A program made the position numbers and the translations under genes. A stretch of 5,233 bases of DNA from a virus. Taxonomy: Duplodnaviria > Heunggongvirae > Uroviricota > Caudoviricetes. Below are positions 1 to 5,233 of this stretch, piece by piece. Below the pieces are notes generated by a model that made no database searches, had not been told where the DNA came from, and worked only from the letters and a program-made list of their open reading frames with translations. Each line of letters starts with the position of its first letter. Within the stretch, counting starts at the first letter, position 1. The stretch lies in the IMG/VR virus record IMGVR_UViG_2660238548_000009. One strand, given 5' to 3'.

Positions 1-79
1 GTAATTTACGGGTGATTCGTTCAAGTAAAGATTCGGAAGGGCAGCCAGCAACAGGCCACCCTGCAATGGCATATTGCAT
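1..79 (-). CDS. cIII: cIII, 5' portion only (gene runs off the left edge of the window)
   Basis: Minus-strand translation from ATG at 79..77 gives MQYAIAGWPVAGCPSESLLERITRKL, which I recognise as the N-terminus of lambda CIII. SD AAGGAG (complement of 86..91) lies 6 nt upstream. Confidence 0.85.
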   Translation of the reverse strand, partial: MQYAIAGWPVAGCPSESLLERITRKL

Positions 80-151
80 GGTGTGCTCCTTATTTATACA
101 TAACGAAAAACGCCTCGAGTGAAGCGTTATTGGTATGCGGTAAAGCCGCGC

Positions 152-463
152 TTAGGCGGCTGATGTTTCTTCTTTCAGGCTTTCGAGATATTTACGTGGG
201 TCGTCGTAACATTGGCATTCGCTGTACCAATCCACCCAGCGATCAGTAAGCCCCATCTCTGATAAATCTTCATCGGTAAGGCTCTCATCCCACATCTCAA
301 GGCCGTTAGCATTGCAGTAATCAGGCTTGATGTTGTTGTCATACTGAAAGGCGTCATAATCAGCCAGTGCGTCCATCAGACGAACACCCTCTTCAACACT
401 TGCCACTTCTACAATGAACGGCTTCATAGGTACTTGCGGGATATGCCAGACACGTAATTTCAT
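152..463 (-). CDS. Hypothetical 103-aa early-left-operon protein in the position lambda uses for ea10; not homologous to lambda Ea10 as recalled
   Basis: ORF-track frame 152..517; I place the start at the internal ATG 463..461 (MKLRVWHIPQV...) because it has a strong SD GGAGG (complement of 468..472) and the upstream in-frame codons run through a terminator hairpin. Ends ...LKEETSAA, stop TAA. Confidence 0.6.
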   Translation of the reverse strand: MKLRVWHIPQVPMKPFIVEVASVEEGVRLMDALADYDAFQYDNNIKPDYCNANGLEMWDESLTDEDLSEMGLTDRWVDWYSECQCYDDPRKYLESLKEETSAA

Positions 464-475
464 ATATCCTCCGTC

Positions 476-504
476 AAAAAAATTGCCCTCACACTGGAGG
501 GCAA
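476..504 (-). terminator. Intrinsic terminator for leftward transcription (hairpin plus U7), lambda tL2-like position
   Basis: Minus-strand RNA reads UU-GCCCUC-CAGUGU-GAGGGC-AA followed directly by UUUUUUU (complement of A-run 476..482). Core stem 485..490/497..502, extendable by two A-U pairs. Confidence 0.5.
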
Positions 505-565
505 AGAAGATTTCCAATAATCAGAACAAGTCGGCTCCTGTTTAGTTACGAGCGACATTGCTCCG

Positions 566-592
566 TGTATTCACTCGTTGGAATGAATACAC
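566..592 (-). other. Perfect 9-bp inverted repeat (GTGTATTCA / TGAATACAC, 9-nt loop); possible RNA hairpin or processing site
   Basis: gtgtattca (566..574) is the exact reverse complement of tgaatacac (584..592). No U-tract follows on either strand, so it is not a canonical terminator. Confidence 0.4.
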
Positions 593-606
593 AGTGCTTA
601 TTCGTA

Positions 607-1077
607 CTAATAAAATACCCAATTTTCTGTTTCTTGGTTATGTCCAAAGTTATATTCAATATCTGGTGTTGATGTATCAATATTTTTCATCCCATCAACA
701 AGAGTTGATACAACAGCCAAATCTTGTTTTATTCTCATTAAATGGTATTTCTTCCGGCGCAATAAACTTTCAATAGCAAGTTTCTTCGTTGGGAATGCAA
801 AAGATCTTTCTGCATTTTTTGCTACTTTCTTAATTGCATATCTATTTCTCCTTTGTTTCCATTCCTGTAACCACTGATTTGGTGCTGGTTTAAAATTAAC
901 AATCCAATGCGCAGGAACCAACCATGCATAATGCTCTGTCTGATGAAAAGCTATATATTGAAGTGCGAATATTTTTATCCCATCTTCTTCAACTGTCGCC
1001 TGGAATCTCCAGAAAACAGGCATTCCATCATGTTCAGTTTCTAATTCAGGAAAAGGTACGCTCCATGATTTTGTCAT
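607..1077 (-). CDS. Hypothetical 156-aa protein, function unknown (occupies the ral/sieB slot downstream of N)
   Basis: ORF-track ORF with SD GAGGTGA (complement of 1081..1087) 6 nt upstream of ATG 1077..1075. Acidic N-terminal part and a strongly basic central segment (KQRRNRYAIKKVAKNAERSFAFPTKKLAIESLLRRKKYHLMRIKQ). Co-oriented with N. Confidence 0.65.
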   Translation of the reverse strand: MTKSWSVPFPELETEHDGMPVFWRFQATVEEDGIKIFALQYIAFHQTEHYAWLVPAHWIVNFKPAPNQWLQEWKQRRNRYAIKKVAKNAERSFAFPTKKLAIESLLRRKKYHLMRIKQDLAVVSTLVDGMKNIDTSTPDIEYNFGHNQETENWVFY

Positions 1078-1135
1078 ATCTCACCTCAAATAAGTGGTTT
1101 GCTGCCTAATTTCATTTTCTGGCGACCAACACAAG

Positions 1136-1519
1136 TCACCTCGCCGTCAGTTGTTTGGATTTCCGGTAGCCTGCCGCGTAAATGGCTACGTTTGGAAGAC
1201 ATACACCAGTTTCTGGTTGCTTATGTCCAAACTCATTCGCGTACACAATGGCCGCTCGCTCCAGATTGCGTCTGTATTCTTTCTGTTGCCAGATCACGTC
1301 CTGTGCCATGAACTTAATTGGCTTAGCGTCTTCTATACGCTCAGGCGTTTCGTGAGTACCTTTAGCCTGAATCTGCGCTCTGCTTAGAGTAGGGCGGTGT
1401 AATACTTCTGAACTTATTGCTTCTTCGCGGGCCAGTACGCCGTTAGCTAATGCCTTTACCTTTAAACGCTCACGACGACGAGAACGTGAATTGCCTTTGA
1501 ACTGAGTTCTGCGTGTCAT
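1136..1519 (-). CDS. N: N-type transcription antiterminator, non-lambda specificity (P22/21/H-19B-like)
   Basis: 127-aa product MTRRTQFKGNSRSRRRERLKVKA... has an N-terminal arginine-rich motif typical of N-family proteins. Start ATG 1519..1517 has SD AGGAGG (complement of 1525..1530). The 46 extra upstream codons of ORF 1136..1657 lack an RBS and lie in the PL leader. Sits immediately downstream of PL/OL. Confidence 0.8.
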   Translation of the reverse strand: MTRRTQFKGNSRSRRRERLKVKALANGVLAREEAISSEVLHRPTLSRAQIQAKGTHETPERIEDAKPIKFMAQDVIWQQKEYRRNLERAAIVYANEFGHKQPETGVCLPNVAIYAAGYRKSKQLTAR

Positions 1520-1675
1520 ATAGACCTCCTGATGAACTTTGGTGGTGTGGTAGGTGGGAGACCCATTTCGACCTACTTCAATTCGGCAATAGTCCCGCAG
1601 GCCTCGCCGCTTTACGTGCGACATATTCCCGTCCATGAACCCTTCACCACACCCCAAAGTTCACTTTGGTTATTG

Positions 1676-1690
1676 CGCTTTGTCAGCGCC
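1676..1690 (-). promoter_or_regulatory. nutL boxB-like RNA hairpin (GCGCU-GACAA-AGCGC)
   Basis: Minus-strand transcript carries GCGCUGACAAAGCGC (5-bp stem, 5-nt GNRA-like loop) about 60 nt downstream of the predicted PL start. It matches my recollection of the P22-type nutL boxB and fits the non-lambda N. No convincing boxA (CGCTCTTA-like) was found upstream. Confidence 0.55.
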
Positions 1691-1757
1691 GTAGATTCAT
1701 ATTCGAATCGTTGTATATTCACCGCCCTGGTGAGTAGTGCGTCCTGCTGATGTGTTT

Positions 1758-1786
1758 AGTATCACCGCCAGTGGTATTTGTGTCAA
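1758..1786 (-). promoter_or_regulatory. PL promoter (-35 TTGACA, -10 GATACT, 17-bp spacer)
   Basis: Minus strand: TTGACA is the complement of 1781..1786 and GATACT the complement of 1758..1763. Overlaps OL1/OL2 exactly as in lambda. Confidence 0.85.
1760..1776. promoter_or_regulatory. Operator OL1
   Basis: TATCACCGCCAGTGGTA, identical to lambda OL1 as recalled. Confidence 0.9.
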
Positions 1787-1800
1787 CACCGCTAGAGATA
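1784..1800. promoter_or_regulatory. Operator OL2 (one substitution relative to lambda)
   Basis: CAACACCGCTAGAGATA; lambda has CAACACCGCCAGAGATA. The C-to-T change at 1793 creates CTAG. Confidence 0.85.
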
Positions 1801-1803
1801 ATT

Positions 1804-1820
1804 CATCACCGCAGATGGTT
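1804..1820. promoter_or_regulatory. Operator OL3 (position-1 variant)
   Basis: CATCACCGCAGATGGTT; lambda has TATCACCGCAGATGGTT. Confidence 0.8.
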
Positions 1821-1970
1821 ATCTGTATGTTTTTTATATGAATTTATTTTTTGCAGGGGGGCATTGTTTGGTAGGTGAGAGATCAGAATTGCACTGTTTA
1901 GCAAGTTGTATCTATCAATTTTTCAATAAATACAATGAGTTATGTTTTTTTAGGTGGGGGATCGCGAGGC

Positions 1971-1996
1971 AAAGAAAACCCGGCGCTGAGGCCGGG
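1971..1996 (-). terminator. Intrinsic terminator ending the cI-linked operon (lambda timm-like)
   Basis: Stem CCCGGC (1979..1984) / GCCGGG (1991..1996) with a 6-nt loop. On the minus-strand RNA the hairpin is followed by UUUUCUUU (complement of 1971..1978). It lies immediately after the stop of the 55-aa ORF. Confidence 0.6.
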
Positions 1997-2161
1997 CTAG
2001 ATTTTAAAGTATTTATCTTTTAGAGATGTAGATGTAAAACTTTTCGCCTTTGAAAATTTTTTGTCATCAGAAGGGCTTATGAACTCATCTTTTTTGTAGG
2101 GAACCGCTAATGCTGCATCACGTCTGCGAGGCAGCTTGCTTACTTCCTCGCGCTTTTTCAT
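1997..2161 (-). CDS. Putative small lysine-rich protein (55 aa), not in the supplied ORF track
   Basis: Hand translation of the minus strand from ATG 2161..2159: MKKREEVSKLPRRRDAALAVPYKKDEFISPSDDKKFSKAKSFTSTSLKDKYFKI, stop TAG 1999..1997. The ATG lies 2 nt after the kinase stop (TGA-TC-ATG); weak SD AGGA 9 nt upstream. It fills the whole gap between the kinase and the terminator in AT-rich sequence. Confidence 0.35.
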   Translation of the reverse strand: MKKREEVSKLPRRRDAALAVPYKKDEFISPSDDKKFSKAKSFTSTSLKDKYFKI

Positions 2162-2163
2162 GA

Positions 2164-3210
2164 TCAGTTATCCTTTAATAACCTATACAGTTTTGTAGGG
2201 GTACATCCTGAGGATATTGTTAAGTTCGTAGCACGCCTTTTCCGCCCATCATCGTATAAACGAAAACCAGTAGTAGACGAATTTTCTGCGTCAAAAACTA
2301 TAGACAGTATAGCGTCCCCAGACTTTTTTTGCCATTCGCATGTGCCGTTAGTTGGTTTCGTCATCTGTAGACGCCAGTCAAGAACGCCATCACTTATAGC
2401 TGAGAGATCGTTTAGTACATCTAGTACGGATTGATATCTTTCATTTGGATCTACATGAATGCATTTGTTCACTATTGTTATTAATTTTTTATGTATATGG
2501 GGAGGATACTCTTTTAATGGATAGCAGCCATTAATTATCGACTCTCTGAGTTGTTCAATCGTGCTAAATGCAGATCTTTCTCTTTCAAAATTATCATGTC
2601 CAACACACATTCTATATATGGTTAATCCTGCCTGATATATGTCATATGTGAAATTATAATCATTTGTTGATAAAGAAAAATATTCCGGTGGCACATGAAA
2701 ATGATATCCAAACTCAGGCGCAGCTCTCGATTCCTCATTGACTAACTGAGATAATCCAAAGTCAGATAGCATGGCCTCATTTCTGTTTGATATCATAATG
2801 TTATTAGGTTTTATATCAAAATGCATAAGACCTTTTGAGTGTATATGATAAAGTCCACTTAAAAATTGAATGGAATACCGTATTATCTCCCTGCTTGTAA
2901 GATTATTTTTTTTCATTAATTGGTTTAGCGAACCATTATGATAAAATGGCATGGCTATATAGATATTGCTCTCACATTGAGCAGCATACTGAACTTGCAC
3001 AATATTTGGATGTGCATGTTTATAGAGAAGCCTTGCTTCATTAAAGTAGTCGTCGTGGTTAGTGTTTTCTTTTTTTTCTATTTCTTTAATCACCAAGTCA
3101 TGAGCTAGGTGTCTGTCATGAGCCAGATATACTTTTGAAAAACAACCCTGTTCTTCTAGATCACTAATCCATTCGAATTCTACATCAGCTCTTTTGTATG
3201 GAGTTAGCAT
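2164..3210 (-). CDS. Eukaryotic-like (Hanks-type) Ser/Thr protein kinase, 348 aa, with a roughly 80-aa non-kinase C-terminal extension
   Basis: Kinase subdomain motifs in canonical order: degenerate Gly loop QGCFSKV (res 21-27); VIK with catalytic Lys42 (codon 3085..3087); catalytic loop HFDIKPNN with Asp132 (2815..2817), the D-x-K-x-x-N form typical of Ser/Thr kinases; DFG 150-152 (2755..2763); PPE 174-176; DIYQAG; HVDPNER. SD GGAGG upstream; the start overlaps the stop of the upstream gene. Confidence 0.9.
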   Translation of the reverse strand: MLTPYKRADVEFEWISDLEEQGCFSKVYLAHDRHLAHDLVIKEIEKKENTNHDDYFNEARLLYKHAHPNIVQVQYAAQCESNIYIAMPFYHNGSLNQLMKKNNLTSREIIRYSIQFLSGLYHIHSKGLMHFDIKPNNIMISNRNEAMLSDFGLSQLVNEESRAAPEFGYHFHVPPEYFSLSTNDYNFTYDIYQAGLTIYRMCVGHDNFERERSAFSTIEQLRESIINGCYPLKEYPPHIHKKLITIVNKCIHVDPNERYQSVLDVLNDLSAISDGVLDWRLQMTKPTNGTCEWQKKSGDAILSIVFDAENSSTTGFRLYDDGRKRRATNLTISSGCTPTKLYRLLKDN

Positions 3211-3665
3211 CCCCTTACCTCCGCAGATAGTGCAGCCAAAACAGCTTCATTTGTTTCAGTTGTAAAACCAGAATTATCGATTCCATTTATATTGCGGTGT
3301 GACTTCAATATTTCTTTATACTCGATCTCTGTTAGGTTCAATGATGATTTCATGCCAGATTTTCTAATAGTGTAATATTTTCTTACATCACTGCTTGAAA
3401 ATGCTTCTTGAATAACAGCTTCTATATAAAGGCGGTCAATGCTAAGATTATCAGAGTTTGATTCAGTAACGCGTATGGCAGCTAATTCAACATTATATAA
3501 ATTAAGAATGTCGAGGATGTTATTTCTCACATACTTTAATTTTTCTGGTGTGTCTAAGGTCGAAGGTATTTTAATGACATCAACACATTTGAGTGCAGAC
3601 TCATTAGTGCAATATACAACAAAAGATGTAACTTTGGGCGCCGCTCTAACACCTAGTATTCTCAT
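3204..3665 (-). CDS. Hypothetical 153-aa protein, translationally coupled to the kinase; possible RNase H-like/RuvC-like fold (weak, by eye)
   Basis: ORF-track ORF. Its stop TAA (3206..3204) overlaps the kinase ATG (3210..3208) as ATGCTAA. Segments MRILGVRAAPKVTSFVVY, PEKLKYV...LAAIRV and NEAVLAALSAE resemble the RuvC segments ILGIDPGSRVTGYGV, PSRLKLI...FAIEQV and DAADALAIAI, but Arg sits where the first two catalytic acidic residues would be. Confidence 0.7.
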   Translation of the reverse strand: MRILGVRAAPKVTSFVVYCTNESALKCVDVIKIPSTLDTPEKLKYVRNNILDILNLYNVELAAIRVTESNSDNLSIDRLYIEAVIQEAFSSSDVRKYYTIRKSGMKSSLNLTEIEYKEILKSHRNINGIDNSGFTTETNEAVLAALSAEVRGC

Positions 3666-3716
3666 TTTTTATATCCTATTTTAGAATCAGGCCGCATCTC
3701 TGCGACCATCCATCAT

Positions 3717-3731
3717 CCAAACGTCTCTTCA
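3717..3731. repeat. 15-bp direct repeat, copy 1 (ccaaacgtctcttca), downstream of the 113-aa gene
   Basis: Exact 15-nt match to 4088..4102. On the minus strand it reads TGAAGAGACGTTTGG followed by ATGA, i.e. a copy of the cI C-terminal codons EETFG plus an in-frame stop. Confidence 0.9.
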
Positions 3732-3732
3732 C

Positions 3733-4074
3733 TCATCCGAAGAAGCAGCAATCCGGGTCAGCACGCACAAGCTCAAGCGCATCAGTCAGCGAAAGTTCAG
3801 TACTGTACTGATGCCATTTCATATCCTTCCGCATCCAATAGATTTTCCATCTATCCAGAGAACGTATGTACTTGATTCTTGCTGATGGCAGGATGTTTGT
3901 TTCACCTGGGTTGCCCTGCCACACGGGGCGCTGTTCGCCGATATCTATCGTTTGGTCATTGATGCTATAAACAATATCCAGTTCATTGCGGATATGTTCA
4001 GGCGGCCTTATGCTTTCAATGAATTGGTGAACTTCTTTTTTGACCGCTTGATATTCAAGGTCAGTGAACGCCAT
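3733..4074 (-). CDS. Hypothetical 113-aa protein, first gene downstream of cI (occupies the rexA position)
   Basis: ORF-track ORF. ATG 4074..4072 lies 9 nt after the cI stop with a strong SD GAGGAGGA (complement of 4078..4085) inside the cI 3' end. W/Y-rich (WKIYWMRKDMKWHQY), ends in CCFFG. No motif I can assign. Confidence 0.7.
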   Translation of the reverse strand: MAFTDLEYQAVKKEVHQFIESIRPPEHIRNELDIVYSINDQTIDIGEQRPVWQGNPGETNILPSARIKYIRSLDRWKIYWMRKDMKWHQYSTELSLTDALELVRADPDCCFFG

Positions 4075-4083
4075 CTATCCTCC

Positions 4084-4800
<717 letters not shown>

Positions 4801-4803
4801 TTA

Positions 4804-4832
4804 AATCTATCACCGCAAGGGATAAATATCTA
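4804..4832 (-). promoter_or_regulatory. PRM promoter (-35 TAGATA, -10 TAGATT, 17-bp spacer)
   Basis: Minus strand: TAGATA is the complement of 4827..4832 and TAGATT the complement of 4804..4809. The -10 ends 7 nt before the cI ATG, consistent with a leaderless cI mRNA. Confidence 0.85.
4808..4824. promoter_or_regulatory. Operator OR3
   Basis: TATCACCGCAAGGGATA, identical to lambda OR3 as recalled. Confidence 0.9.
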
Positions 4833-4847
4833 ACACCGTGCGTGTTG
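4831..4847. promoter_or_regulatory. Operator OR2
   Basis: TAACACCGTGCGTGTTG, identical to lambda OR2 as recalled. Confidence 0.9.
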
Positions 4848-4873
4848 ACTATTATACCTCTAGCGGTGATAAT
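4845..4873 (+). promoter_or_regulatory. PR promoter (-35 TTGACT, -10 GATAAT, 17-bp spacer)
   Basis: TTGACT at 4845..4850 and GATAAT at 4868..4873, overlapping OR2/OR1. SD AGGAGG at 4888..4893 precedes cro. Confidence 0.9.
4855..4871. promoter_or_regulatory. Operator OR1 (one substitution relative to lambda)
   Basis: TACCTCTAGCGGTGATA; lambda has TACCTCTGGCGGTGATA. The G-to-A change at 4862 creates CTAG. Confidence 0.85.
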
Positions 4874-4897
4874 GATTGCCTGTACTAAGGAGGTTGT

Positions 4898-5098
4898 ATG
4901 GAACAACGCATAACCCTGAAAGATTATGCAATACGCTTTGGGCAAACCAAGGCGGCTAAAGATCTCGGCGTATATCAAAGCGCGATTAACAAGGCCATTC
5001 ATGCAGGCCGAAAGATTTTTTTAACTATAAACGCTGATGGAAGCGTTTATGCGGAAGAAATAAAGCCCTTCCCAAGTAACAAAAAAACAACTGCATAA
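4898..5098 (+). CDS. cro: Cro repressor, lambda-type (66 aa)
   Basis: [66 protein letters not shown] is near-identical to lambda Cro as recalled (three conservative differences). Sits directly downstream of PR/OR1. Confidence 0.95.
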
Positions 5099-5233
5099 GT
5101 AACACCGTGAGGTGTACTGGCAATAGCGGACACTACCATTTGTTCTTTTTTTAAGCAGCCATCTGATGATATTTTTCCCTGAAGGCTGCCGGGGAGATAT
5201 TCCCCAGACGAGAGTGACGACGCTGACGATTGT

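Follow-up and report, generated by a model that had tools for sequence, protein, structure and literature searches.

A probable H-19B/933W/HK97-type antitermination module beside a lambda-type immunity region in a prophage whose nutR is split by IS600

A stretch of 5,233 nucleotides (nt) of Caudoviricetes DNA (IMG/VR record IMGVR_UViG_2660238548_000009), referred to below, at its full length, as the window, covers a lambdoid prophage's early control region. On the minus strand of the window lie gene N, which encodes an antitermination protein, and the N leader with the leftward N-utilization site, nutL. We are highly confident that these parts make up the standard module for early leftward antitermination known from lambdoid phages of the H-19B/933W/HK97 group, set beside an immunity region of lambda type. 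Its nutL carries an extra spacer hairpin and no recognizable boxA, and analogy with H-19B and other relatives suggests that this is the normal functional state of such a module. The rightward site, nutR, is interrupted in this copy by the insertion sequence (IS) element IS600. The sequence comparisons below establish what the parts are, how they are conserved and covary, that boxA is absent, and where the IS joins the prophage.

Results

An H-19B-type N gene heads the PL operon

Gene N (1136-1519, minus strand) encodes a protein of 127 amino acids (aa; MTRRTQFKGNSRSRRRERLK...AIYAAGYRKSKQLTAR) whose homologues are of the H-19B/933W/HK97 type. It stands first in the PL operon, adjoins the immunity region, and is read in the direction that leads away from that region, with the PL promoter (1786-1758) between the cI operon terminator and N. 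The protein matches the Pfam profile N_peptide (PF25694; 56.3 bits, E = 4.8e-15; cut-off 27.9), so that profile and operon position both agree with an N protein, and its length and arginine-rich motif (residues 12-18, RSRRRER) are those of the H-19B/933W/HK97 subgroup. Within that motif, RRRER is invariant in an alignment with the N proteins of lambda and P22. A preliminary description of the sequence had stated that this N is not lambda N, and the alignments agree: identity is 26% to lambda N, 39% to P22 gp24, and 99.2% to 933W N, and 4 of the 127 residues differ from H-19B N (123/127 identical; record AF034975), placing the protein in the H-19B/933W type. Taken together, N and its leader are 97.9% identical to 933W, 96.4% to HK97, and 96.1% to mEp234 and HK106. 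The V21 variant of N is present in at least 16 other loci. A sequence search of the PDB with N returned no meaningful match.

Translation starts at an ATG (1519-1517) preceded at a distance of five nt by the Shine-Dalgarno (SD) sequence AGGAGG (1525-1530, minus strand), which is kept in all family leaders. A longer open reading frame (ORF) of 173 aa, running through the leader from a TTG at 1657, was set aside as an artefact, since a strong SD sequence precedes the ATG at 1519 and the published protein has 127 aa. At the other end of the gene, the C-terminal 22 residues (1136-1204, minus strand) are 100% identical to those of N in HK140, 1H12, and several "Lambda_ev" isolates, lambda-like phages whose N is otherwise unrelated to that of the window; this sharing points to a recombination joint inside the N gene.

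One nutL layout is shared across the family

Leaders were gathered from a phage collection by N similarity (tblastn, down to 64% identity) and from viral contigs by a motif anchor that excluded the spacer hairpin and boxB. A general search for related loci gave 80 loci, all at least 98% identical to the query, and diversity was taken from the tblastn and motif-anchored scans. The resulting 60 distinct nutL variants, from about 205 loci, have a single layout in common, and the nutL of the window is the commonest of them. From the transcription start (+1), the order is AUCAGCAGGA, a variable 9-mer, hairpin 1 (CACC-AGGNN-GGUG), AAYAUACAACG, the spacer hairpin (GAUUC-N6-GAAUC), UACG, and boxB. From +1 to about +103—through both hairpins and boxB into the next helix—the leader of the window is identical to that of H-19B.

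In the window, hairpin 1 reads UCACC-AGGGC-GGUGA (1719-1733, minus strand) and is identified by the predicted fold and by alignment with lambda, which has CACC-AUGAA-GGUG. The PL transcript continues with AAUAUACAACG, followed by the spacer hairpin GAUUC-GAAUAU-GAAUC (1694-1709, minus strand), seen in the minimum free energy (MFE) fold and by its conservation, then the linker UACG (1690-1693, minus strand) and boxB. The linker is invariant in all but one variant across the 205 loci and also occurs in nutR. In the same loci the stem of the spacer hairpin never changes, and five of its six loop positions vary; in nutR the spacer position is taken by another hairpin, GGAC-AUUC-GUCC. By analogy with H-19B nutR, where the spacer is protected by N and NusA (PMC3526286), ACAACG (overlapping the first G of the hairpin) and the spacer hairpin probably form a family-specific nut element and NusA contact region.

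boxB matches the N type of its own locus

The nutL boxB (1675-1689, minus strand) is GCGCU-GACAA-AGCGC, a stem of five base pairs (bp) with a pentaloop; read from 1689 to 1675 it is GCGCUGACAAAGCGC. The preliminary description had reported this hairpin and its difference from that of lambda, which stands, and had placed it at 1676-1690, one base off. It had also proposed folding the leader RNA, and the hairpin is indeed present in the predicted minimum-energy fold, with its 5-bp stem and GACAA loop. The sequence is identical to the nutL boxB of P22 and to that of H-19B, and the GenBank records of mEp234 (EF120460) and HK106, as well as of 933W, mark this same hairpin as nutL boxB; a different boxB known for the N family, which the earlier text had named as fatal to its proposal, is thus not what these records show. 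A 5-bp stem with a purine-rich pentaloop is what a canonical nut site has at this place, and a GACAA loop with a closing U-A pair, downstream of the spacer hairpin and UACG, is characteristic of the subgroup. Rfam has no nut or boxB family, and its sole match in the window is the cIII thermoregulator.

Among relatives, the boxB stem covaries (GCGCU..AGCGC, CGGC..GCCG, AGGC..GCCU). Across about 200 loci, the form of boxB is linked without exception to the arginine-rich motif of the N encoded at the same locus: RSRRRERLK(A/V)KALANG goes with the loop GACAA, GRRRERRAALQ with UGAAAA, and SRARRRERLK with a third form of boxB. This is the co-variation expected of N and its RNA target, and it bears out, with a perfect match of N type to boxB type, the general statement in the preliminary description that N proteins and boxB hairpins co-vary. 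The hairpin at 1675-1689 is accordingly marked here as the predicted binding site of the N arginine-rich motif.

Phages of the type of Salmonella phage SPN9CC (L005) present a separate case. Their nutL boxB (GCUCCGUCAACGAGC, about 4870-4890 in L005) has a 4-bp stem and a 7-nt loop and is very unlike the nutR boxB of the same phage (UCGCUGACAAGGCGA, about 2190-2210 in L005); one N would have to act on two unlike hairpins, or nutL is impaired.

nutL has no recognizable boxA

In a canonical nut site, the kind seen in lambda, P22, and phage 21, a boxA resembling CGCUCUU(U)A precedes boxB by a short spacer of a few nt, and the nutL of the window has no such element. A search for GCTCTTTA with up to two mismatches found no match between +1 (1751) and boxB. 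We compared the leader with four forms of boxA and with randomized leaders: The best 9-mer match was 5-6/9, a score attained by 18-94% of the randomized leaders—85-94% for the 5/9 match to lambda or P22 boxA and 18% for the 6/9 match to the family nutR boxA. The lambda and P22 leaders, used as controls, scored 9/9, at +34 and +36. That no boxA-like element could be seen upstream of boxB had been noted earlier, and the observation extends to the whole N family.

Two positions in the leader merit comparison with lambda. Lambda boxA, CGCUCUUAA, follows directly after its hairpin 1; in the leader comparison, the corresponding place right after hairpin 1 in the window is taken by AAUAUACAA (1711-1719, minus strand), identical to lambda boxA at 2/9 positions. 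Farther upstream, CGCACUACU (1733-1741, minus strand) is annotated in GenBank as "putative nutL boxA" in mEp234 and HK106, and the nutL feature of 933W starts there. The element falls within a part of the leader common to the window and lambda; lambda reads CGCACUGAC at this position, its real boxA lying at +34, and among 19 variants CGCACUACU varies at 8/9 positions, including transversions at positions 5 and 6. We consider CGCACUACU a weak match that is probably non-functional. On this sequence comparison we regard the nutL of the family as having no functional boxA, with a slim chance left for the annotated element.

Two further observations concern the placing of boxA. The public records EF120460 (L001, 3215-3223) and AF125520 (L002, 6010-6076) annotate CGCACUACU / CGCAUUACU as nutL boxA, annotations that the chance and conservation tests do not support. 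A pairing by MAFFT of lambda boxA with the loop of the spacer hairpin of the window (4/9 identical) was rejected as an alignment artefact.

A long-range helix reaches the N ribosome-binding site

In MFE folding, the complete leader is more stable than its shuffled versions (z = -3.4). Downstream of boxB, a long-range helix joins a 5' arm (1645-1670, minus strand; fold, pair counts, and alignment), which includes the lambda-like CUUUGGGGUGUG, to a 3' arm (1532-1552, minus strand; MFE fold and RNAalifold) at the position of the lambda N-leader stem. Positions 1664-1645 pair with 1552-1532, and ACC at 1670-1668 pairs with GGU at 1526-1524 in the SD region. We examined the helix in 54 distinct leaders, in which the 5' part was joined to the 3' arm by an artificial linker, using RNAalifold and pair counts. 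The ACC/GGU pairs are kept in 54/54 sequences, with the last two G of the SD sequence AGGAGG paired, and compensatory changes are frequent: One pair occurs as UA 28, AU 13, CG 6, and GC 5, another as GC 33, UA 13, and AU 6.

The same long-range arrangement precedes the N ribosome-binding site in lambda, where the leader stem is processed by RNase III and modulates N translation. By analogy, the leader helix of the window, partly covering the N ribosome-binding site, is most likely the counterpart of that stem. The ends of the leader had been described earlier as matching lambda, and they do: +1 to +13 is invariant in the window, lambda, and P22; identity to lambda over 1719-1999 is 90% in blastn; and CACACCACCAAAG near the SD sequence is common to the window and lambda. 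A third shared stretch, CUUUGGGGUGUG at 1659-1648, had been missed.

Phages have exchanged the helix interior among themselves, and leader length ranges from 182 to 341 nt as a result—a mosaic within a mosaic. The window and the IS-free prophage L018 are without 10 nt (CCGAAACAGG) at about 1572/1573 (minus strand) that are present in 933W, HK97, and mEp234; with a GGYCGAAA repeat on either side, the gap has the appearance of a slipped deletion.

IS600 splits nutR within boxA

All phage and Escherichia coli matches to the window stop at 5107. The bases CG at 5106-5107 (plus strand) are what remains of the nutR boxA CGCUCUUUU; the relatives L018, L011, and L012 continue from there with CTCTTTTCACAATGGACATTCGTCCTACGTCGCTGACAAAGCGA. 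In the window, the sequence after CG reads TGAGGTGTACTGGCAATAGCGG..., and the segment 5108-5233 (plus strand) is the end of an IS600 element (IS3 family) that runs off the window. It is 98.5% identical to annotated IS600 and holds both a terminal inverted repeat (TGAGGTGTACTGG...) and, on the minus strand, the coding sequence for the transposase C-terminus. An annotated copy of IS600, of 1264 bp and with a 3-bp target duplication, starts at the same TGAGGTG.

Relatives were obtained as ten contigs from a look-up of the exact Cro protein. The assembly collection has that sequence in 401 blocks, and IS-free prophages of the identical type are common. Over window 1-5107, L018 aligns without gaps and differs at 2 positions (99.96% identity), and L011, L012, L015, L017, and L019 are 99.5-99.8% identical to the window. 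In these contigs, cro is followed by TAAGTAACAC-CGCTCTTTT-CACAATGGACATTCGTCCTACG-TCGCTGACAAAGCGA, that is, a boxA 8 nt past the stop, a spacer hairpin, and boxB. Because near-identical relatives have an intact nutR and the IS600 terminal repeat starts at 5108, we conclude that nutR is split by IS600 between the second and third base of boxA (CG|CTCTTTT), 10 nt after the cro stop. From the subgroup nutR expected after cro (boxA, GGAC-AUUC-GUCC, UACG, and UCGCUGACAAAGCGA), the window retains two bases, which the alignments attribute to damage to this copy and not to a different design.

The preliminary description had found no boxB after cro and offered a choice between a nutR beyond the window and an atypical nut architecture. 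There is nothing boxB-like between cro and the end of the window, where 5108-5233 is IS600, and each of its two options contains something correct: The nut architecture is atypical, nutL having an extra spacer hairpin and no recognizable boxA, and nutR is not in the window. The cause, an IS600 inserted in the nutR boxA, had gone unseen. The search it proposed for a boxA/boxB pair past cro succeeds in the relatives.

Transcription from PR would enter IS600 antisense to the transposase before reaching any nut site. The insertion probably cripples rightward delayed-early expression of the prophage. The junction of cro with IS600 was found in none of the 100 related loci examined.

Elsewhere in the family, the nutR boxA is usually good (CGCUCUUUU or CGCUAUUUU). 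Salmonella phages of the family have a degenerate one (CACUUCCAA) or none; constant in them are ACAAYG, the GGAC-AUUC-GUCC hairpin, UACG, and boxB. The cro-cII spacer of phage S135 (L009) is without any nutR boxA, as are L173, L146, and L255 (…ACACCCCACAACGGAC…), and there the spacer hairpin, UACG, and boxB are unchanged.

The module lies in a mosaic early region

The mosaic pattern is clean in blastn comparisons with reference phages. The cI-OR-cro segment (4084-5107) is 96.0% identical to lambda; OL/PL with the first 30 nt of the PL transcript (1719-1999) is the 90% match given above; and 477-4111, spanning L0079, N, nutL, L0081, stk, L0083, and L0084, is 96.5% identical to 933W. The earlier view of a heterologous N module embedded in a lambda-type immunity region is therefore upheld, N and most of its leader being of 933W/H-19B/HK97 type.

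The immunity region comprises cI (4084-4797, minus strand) and, on the plus strand, PR beside the lambda-type cro (4898-5098; Pfam Cro, 1.6e-33). Directly downstream of the lambda-type cI, where lambda has rexAB, lies a 933W-type module (1997-4074, minus strand), an arrangement common in E. coli assemblies. It contains, all on the minus strand, a DUF3024 gene (3733-4074), a gene for a 153-aa protein (3204-3665) labelled "RuvC family" in some E. coli annotations, and the eukaryote-like Ser/Thr kinase gene stk (2164-3210), which are parts of the 933W "stk" module, as well as a 54-aa ORF (1997-2161). The cI operon terminator (1998-1977, minus strand) follows. OL/PL occupies about 1830-1751 (minus strand), with the PL promoter (1751-1786, minus strand) overlapping a lambda-type OL1 and having, by promoter scan, a -35 TTGACA at 1786-1781 and a -10 GATACT at 1763-1758. 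Homology with the annotation of mEp234 puts the probable PL start at the A at 1751.

Beyond N, the PL operon continues on the minus strand with a 156-aa ORF (607-1077), a gp17-type exclusion gene (152-472), and the cIII start with its thermoregulator RNA (34-92), where the Rfam model Lambda_thermo matches in full (88.5 bits) and places the beginning of cIII at the window's left end. Terminator-like hairpins with U-runs lie on the operon strand at 504-483, after the 156-aa ORF, and at 128-109, after gp17; both are likely targets for N-dependent readthrough.

Discussion

A model of leftward antitermination

We propose a model in which protein binding, Nus-factor requirements, and the role of RNase III are carried over from work on H-19B and lambda. 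Transcription from PL, starting at about 1751, would produce the NUTL RNA, and N would bind the boxB loop through its arginine-rich motif. N, together with NusA on the spacer and NusG, would convert RNA polymerase to a termination-resistant form, able to pass the terminators at 504-483 and 128-109 into gp17 and cIII. Since nutL is taken to have no functional boxA, assembly on it would be independent of NusB and NusE. The leader helix would partly cover the N ribosome-binding site. On the rightward side, nutR normally starts 8 nt after cro, and in this prophage IS600 has entered its boxA.

The N protein of H-19B is said, in a result attributed to Neely and Friedman in 2000, to need NusA and not NusB, S10, or boxA, and to require the dyad symmetry of the spacer; we found no openly readable full text that restates the NusB/S10 result. 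Other published work is consistent with the model. H-19B nutR has two hairpins, and N with NusA/NusG protects the spacer and boxB but not boxA; purified H-19B N antiterminates with NusA and NusG alone; and mutations in its 12-RSRRRER-18 motif, in a protein likewise of 127 aa, abolish nut binding (PMC3526286). NusA binds the nut spacer through an AUU-containing sequence and not boxA, and a lambda boxA deletion still antiterminates efficiently, in a NusB-independent manner (PMC2724277).

Alternative readings

Several points weigh against the model. Three GenBank records put boxA at CGCACUACU, as "putative nutL boxA" in EF120460 and EF120461 and as the start of the nutL feature in 933W, and CGCACUACU keeps G2, C5, and U6, positions at which transversions abolish lambda boxA function (PMC3177189). 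The stem of the spacer hairpin never varies in the 205 loci, so that covariation does not separate a structural role from a sequence role. A part for RNase III at the leader helix is argued by analogy. The GenBank annotations and the three retained bases, with a 6/9 match to the family nutR boxA, would fit a nutL boxA that works: CGCACUACU (1741-1733), 43 nt upstream of boxB, might bind NusB-NusE as in lambda, the two hairpins acting as a long structured spacer. We think this improbable. Its 5/9 match to lambda or P22 boxA is at chance level, and the 6/9 match is reached by 18% of randomized leaders; the element is variable at 8/9 positions; lambda has CGCACUGAC, not its boxA, at that place; and in H-19B nutR even a good boxA is unprotected by the N complex (PMC3526286). 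A different reading of the missing boxA is that the module is a decaying relic—an IS-hit prophage whose N/nutL no longer functions. The IS600 in nutR is damage to this copy, and the leader is without 10 nt found in 933W, HK97, and mEp234. We nevertheless give this reading very little credence: N keeps an intact ORF in a variant (V21) that recurs elsewhere, nutL is the commonest variant and matches plaque-forming H-19B from +1 to about +103, the boxA-less layout is common to the viable phages HK97, 933W, and mEp234, and the 10-nt gap lies in the variable helix interior and is also present in the IS-free L018.

For the rightward side, a simple insertion predicts that ...GGCTACCTCA-CCG-CTCTTTTCACAATGGAC would follow some 1.26 kb rightward of 5108. 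Alternatively, IS600 may be the edge of an IS-mediated deletion or rearrangement, with nutR and the rightward genes lost and not displaced by 1.26 kb, an account that we find doubtful and yet deserving of appreciable weight. Scans of genome and metagenome contigs gave no match to the predicted far junction (IS600 end, any 3 bases, CTCTTTTCACAATGGAC), and scans of genome, viral, and metagenome contigs gave none to the near junction of cro with IS600; with the near junction itself absent from those collections, which do not seem to include the source genome, the negative result for the far one is uninformative, and the reference copy of IS600 makes a plain 3-bp target duplication. A further proposal extends the idea of a family-specific nut element. 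The nutL stem is constant in 205 loci while its loop drifts, nutL has no boxA, and some nutR sites can do without theirs or have lost it; these features suggest, as a tentative and rather unlikely possibility, that the invariant block ACAAYG/stem-loop/UACG immediately upstream of boxB in both nutL and nutR is a sequence-specific recognition element that would replace the boxA-NusB-NusE platform by way of NusA or another host factor. This idea is partly published for H-19B, and only the exact recognition code would be new.

Comparison with known systems

Both the N/nut module and the lambda-immunity mosaic are already known, the atypical nut having been studied experimentally in H-19B; the sole feature specific to this copy is the IS600 insertion, an ordinary event of prophage decay. 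The discovery value is correspondingly small, since the H-19B module has been studied experimentally and its association with lambda immunity is documented in HK97 and wild phages. The value for annotation is that N, PL, nutL, and the leader helix now have fixed coordinates, that the seemingly missing nutR is explained by IS600, and that the nutL "boxA" of GenBank records for H-19B/933W/HK97-type modules proves no better than a chance match.

The closest studied system is H-19B (Neely and Friedman 1998, 2000; Sen laboratory, PMC3526286, PMC4499122), which has the same RSRRRER motif, an N with 4/127 differences, and an identical nutL over the segment given above, including both hairpins and boxB. 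Its nutR differs from that of the IS-free relatives of the window solely in boxA (CGCUCUUUU in the relatives, CGCUAUUUU in H-19B). The window departs from H-19B in its lambda-type immunity, in a leader-helix interior of the 933W/HK97 version, and in a nutR cut by IS600.

HK97, mEp234, and HK106 (AF069529, EF120460, EF120461) show the same pairing as the window, with lambda-type cI/cro/operators 96.8-96.9% identical and N/nutL 96.1-96.4% identical. HK97, sequenced in 2000, joins a lambda-type cI-cro 96.9% identical to that of the window to the same N module; the mEp234 and HK106 records, in which N, nutL, and nutR are annotated, were submitted specifically as wild-phage lambda-immunity regions. 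What differs is the cargo between cI and PL: hicAB in mEp234, gp48/gp49 in HK97, and the 933W-type stk kinase module in the window. With 933W (AF125520), the window shares a contiguous stk module and N (477-4111), whereas the repressor, operators, and PL of 933W are its own and those of the window are of lambda type.

P22 has the identical boxB GCGCUGACAAAGCGC, a related arginine-rich motif (GNAKTRRHERRRKLA in the window, GNSRSRRRERLKVKA in P22), and an N with a similar C-terminal end. Unlike the window, its nutL has a canonical boxA (CGCUCUUUA) and an unstructured 11-nt spacer, and its N is 39% identical overall. Lambda has N at the same position in the PL operon as the window and agrees with it in transcript nt 1-13, in hairpin 1, and in the long-range helix; it differs in an N of 26% identity, in its boxB GCCCUGAAGAAGGGC, in having boxA CGCUCUUAA where the window has AAUAUACAA, and in being without the spacer hairpin.

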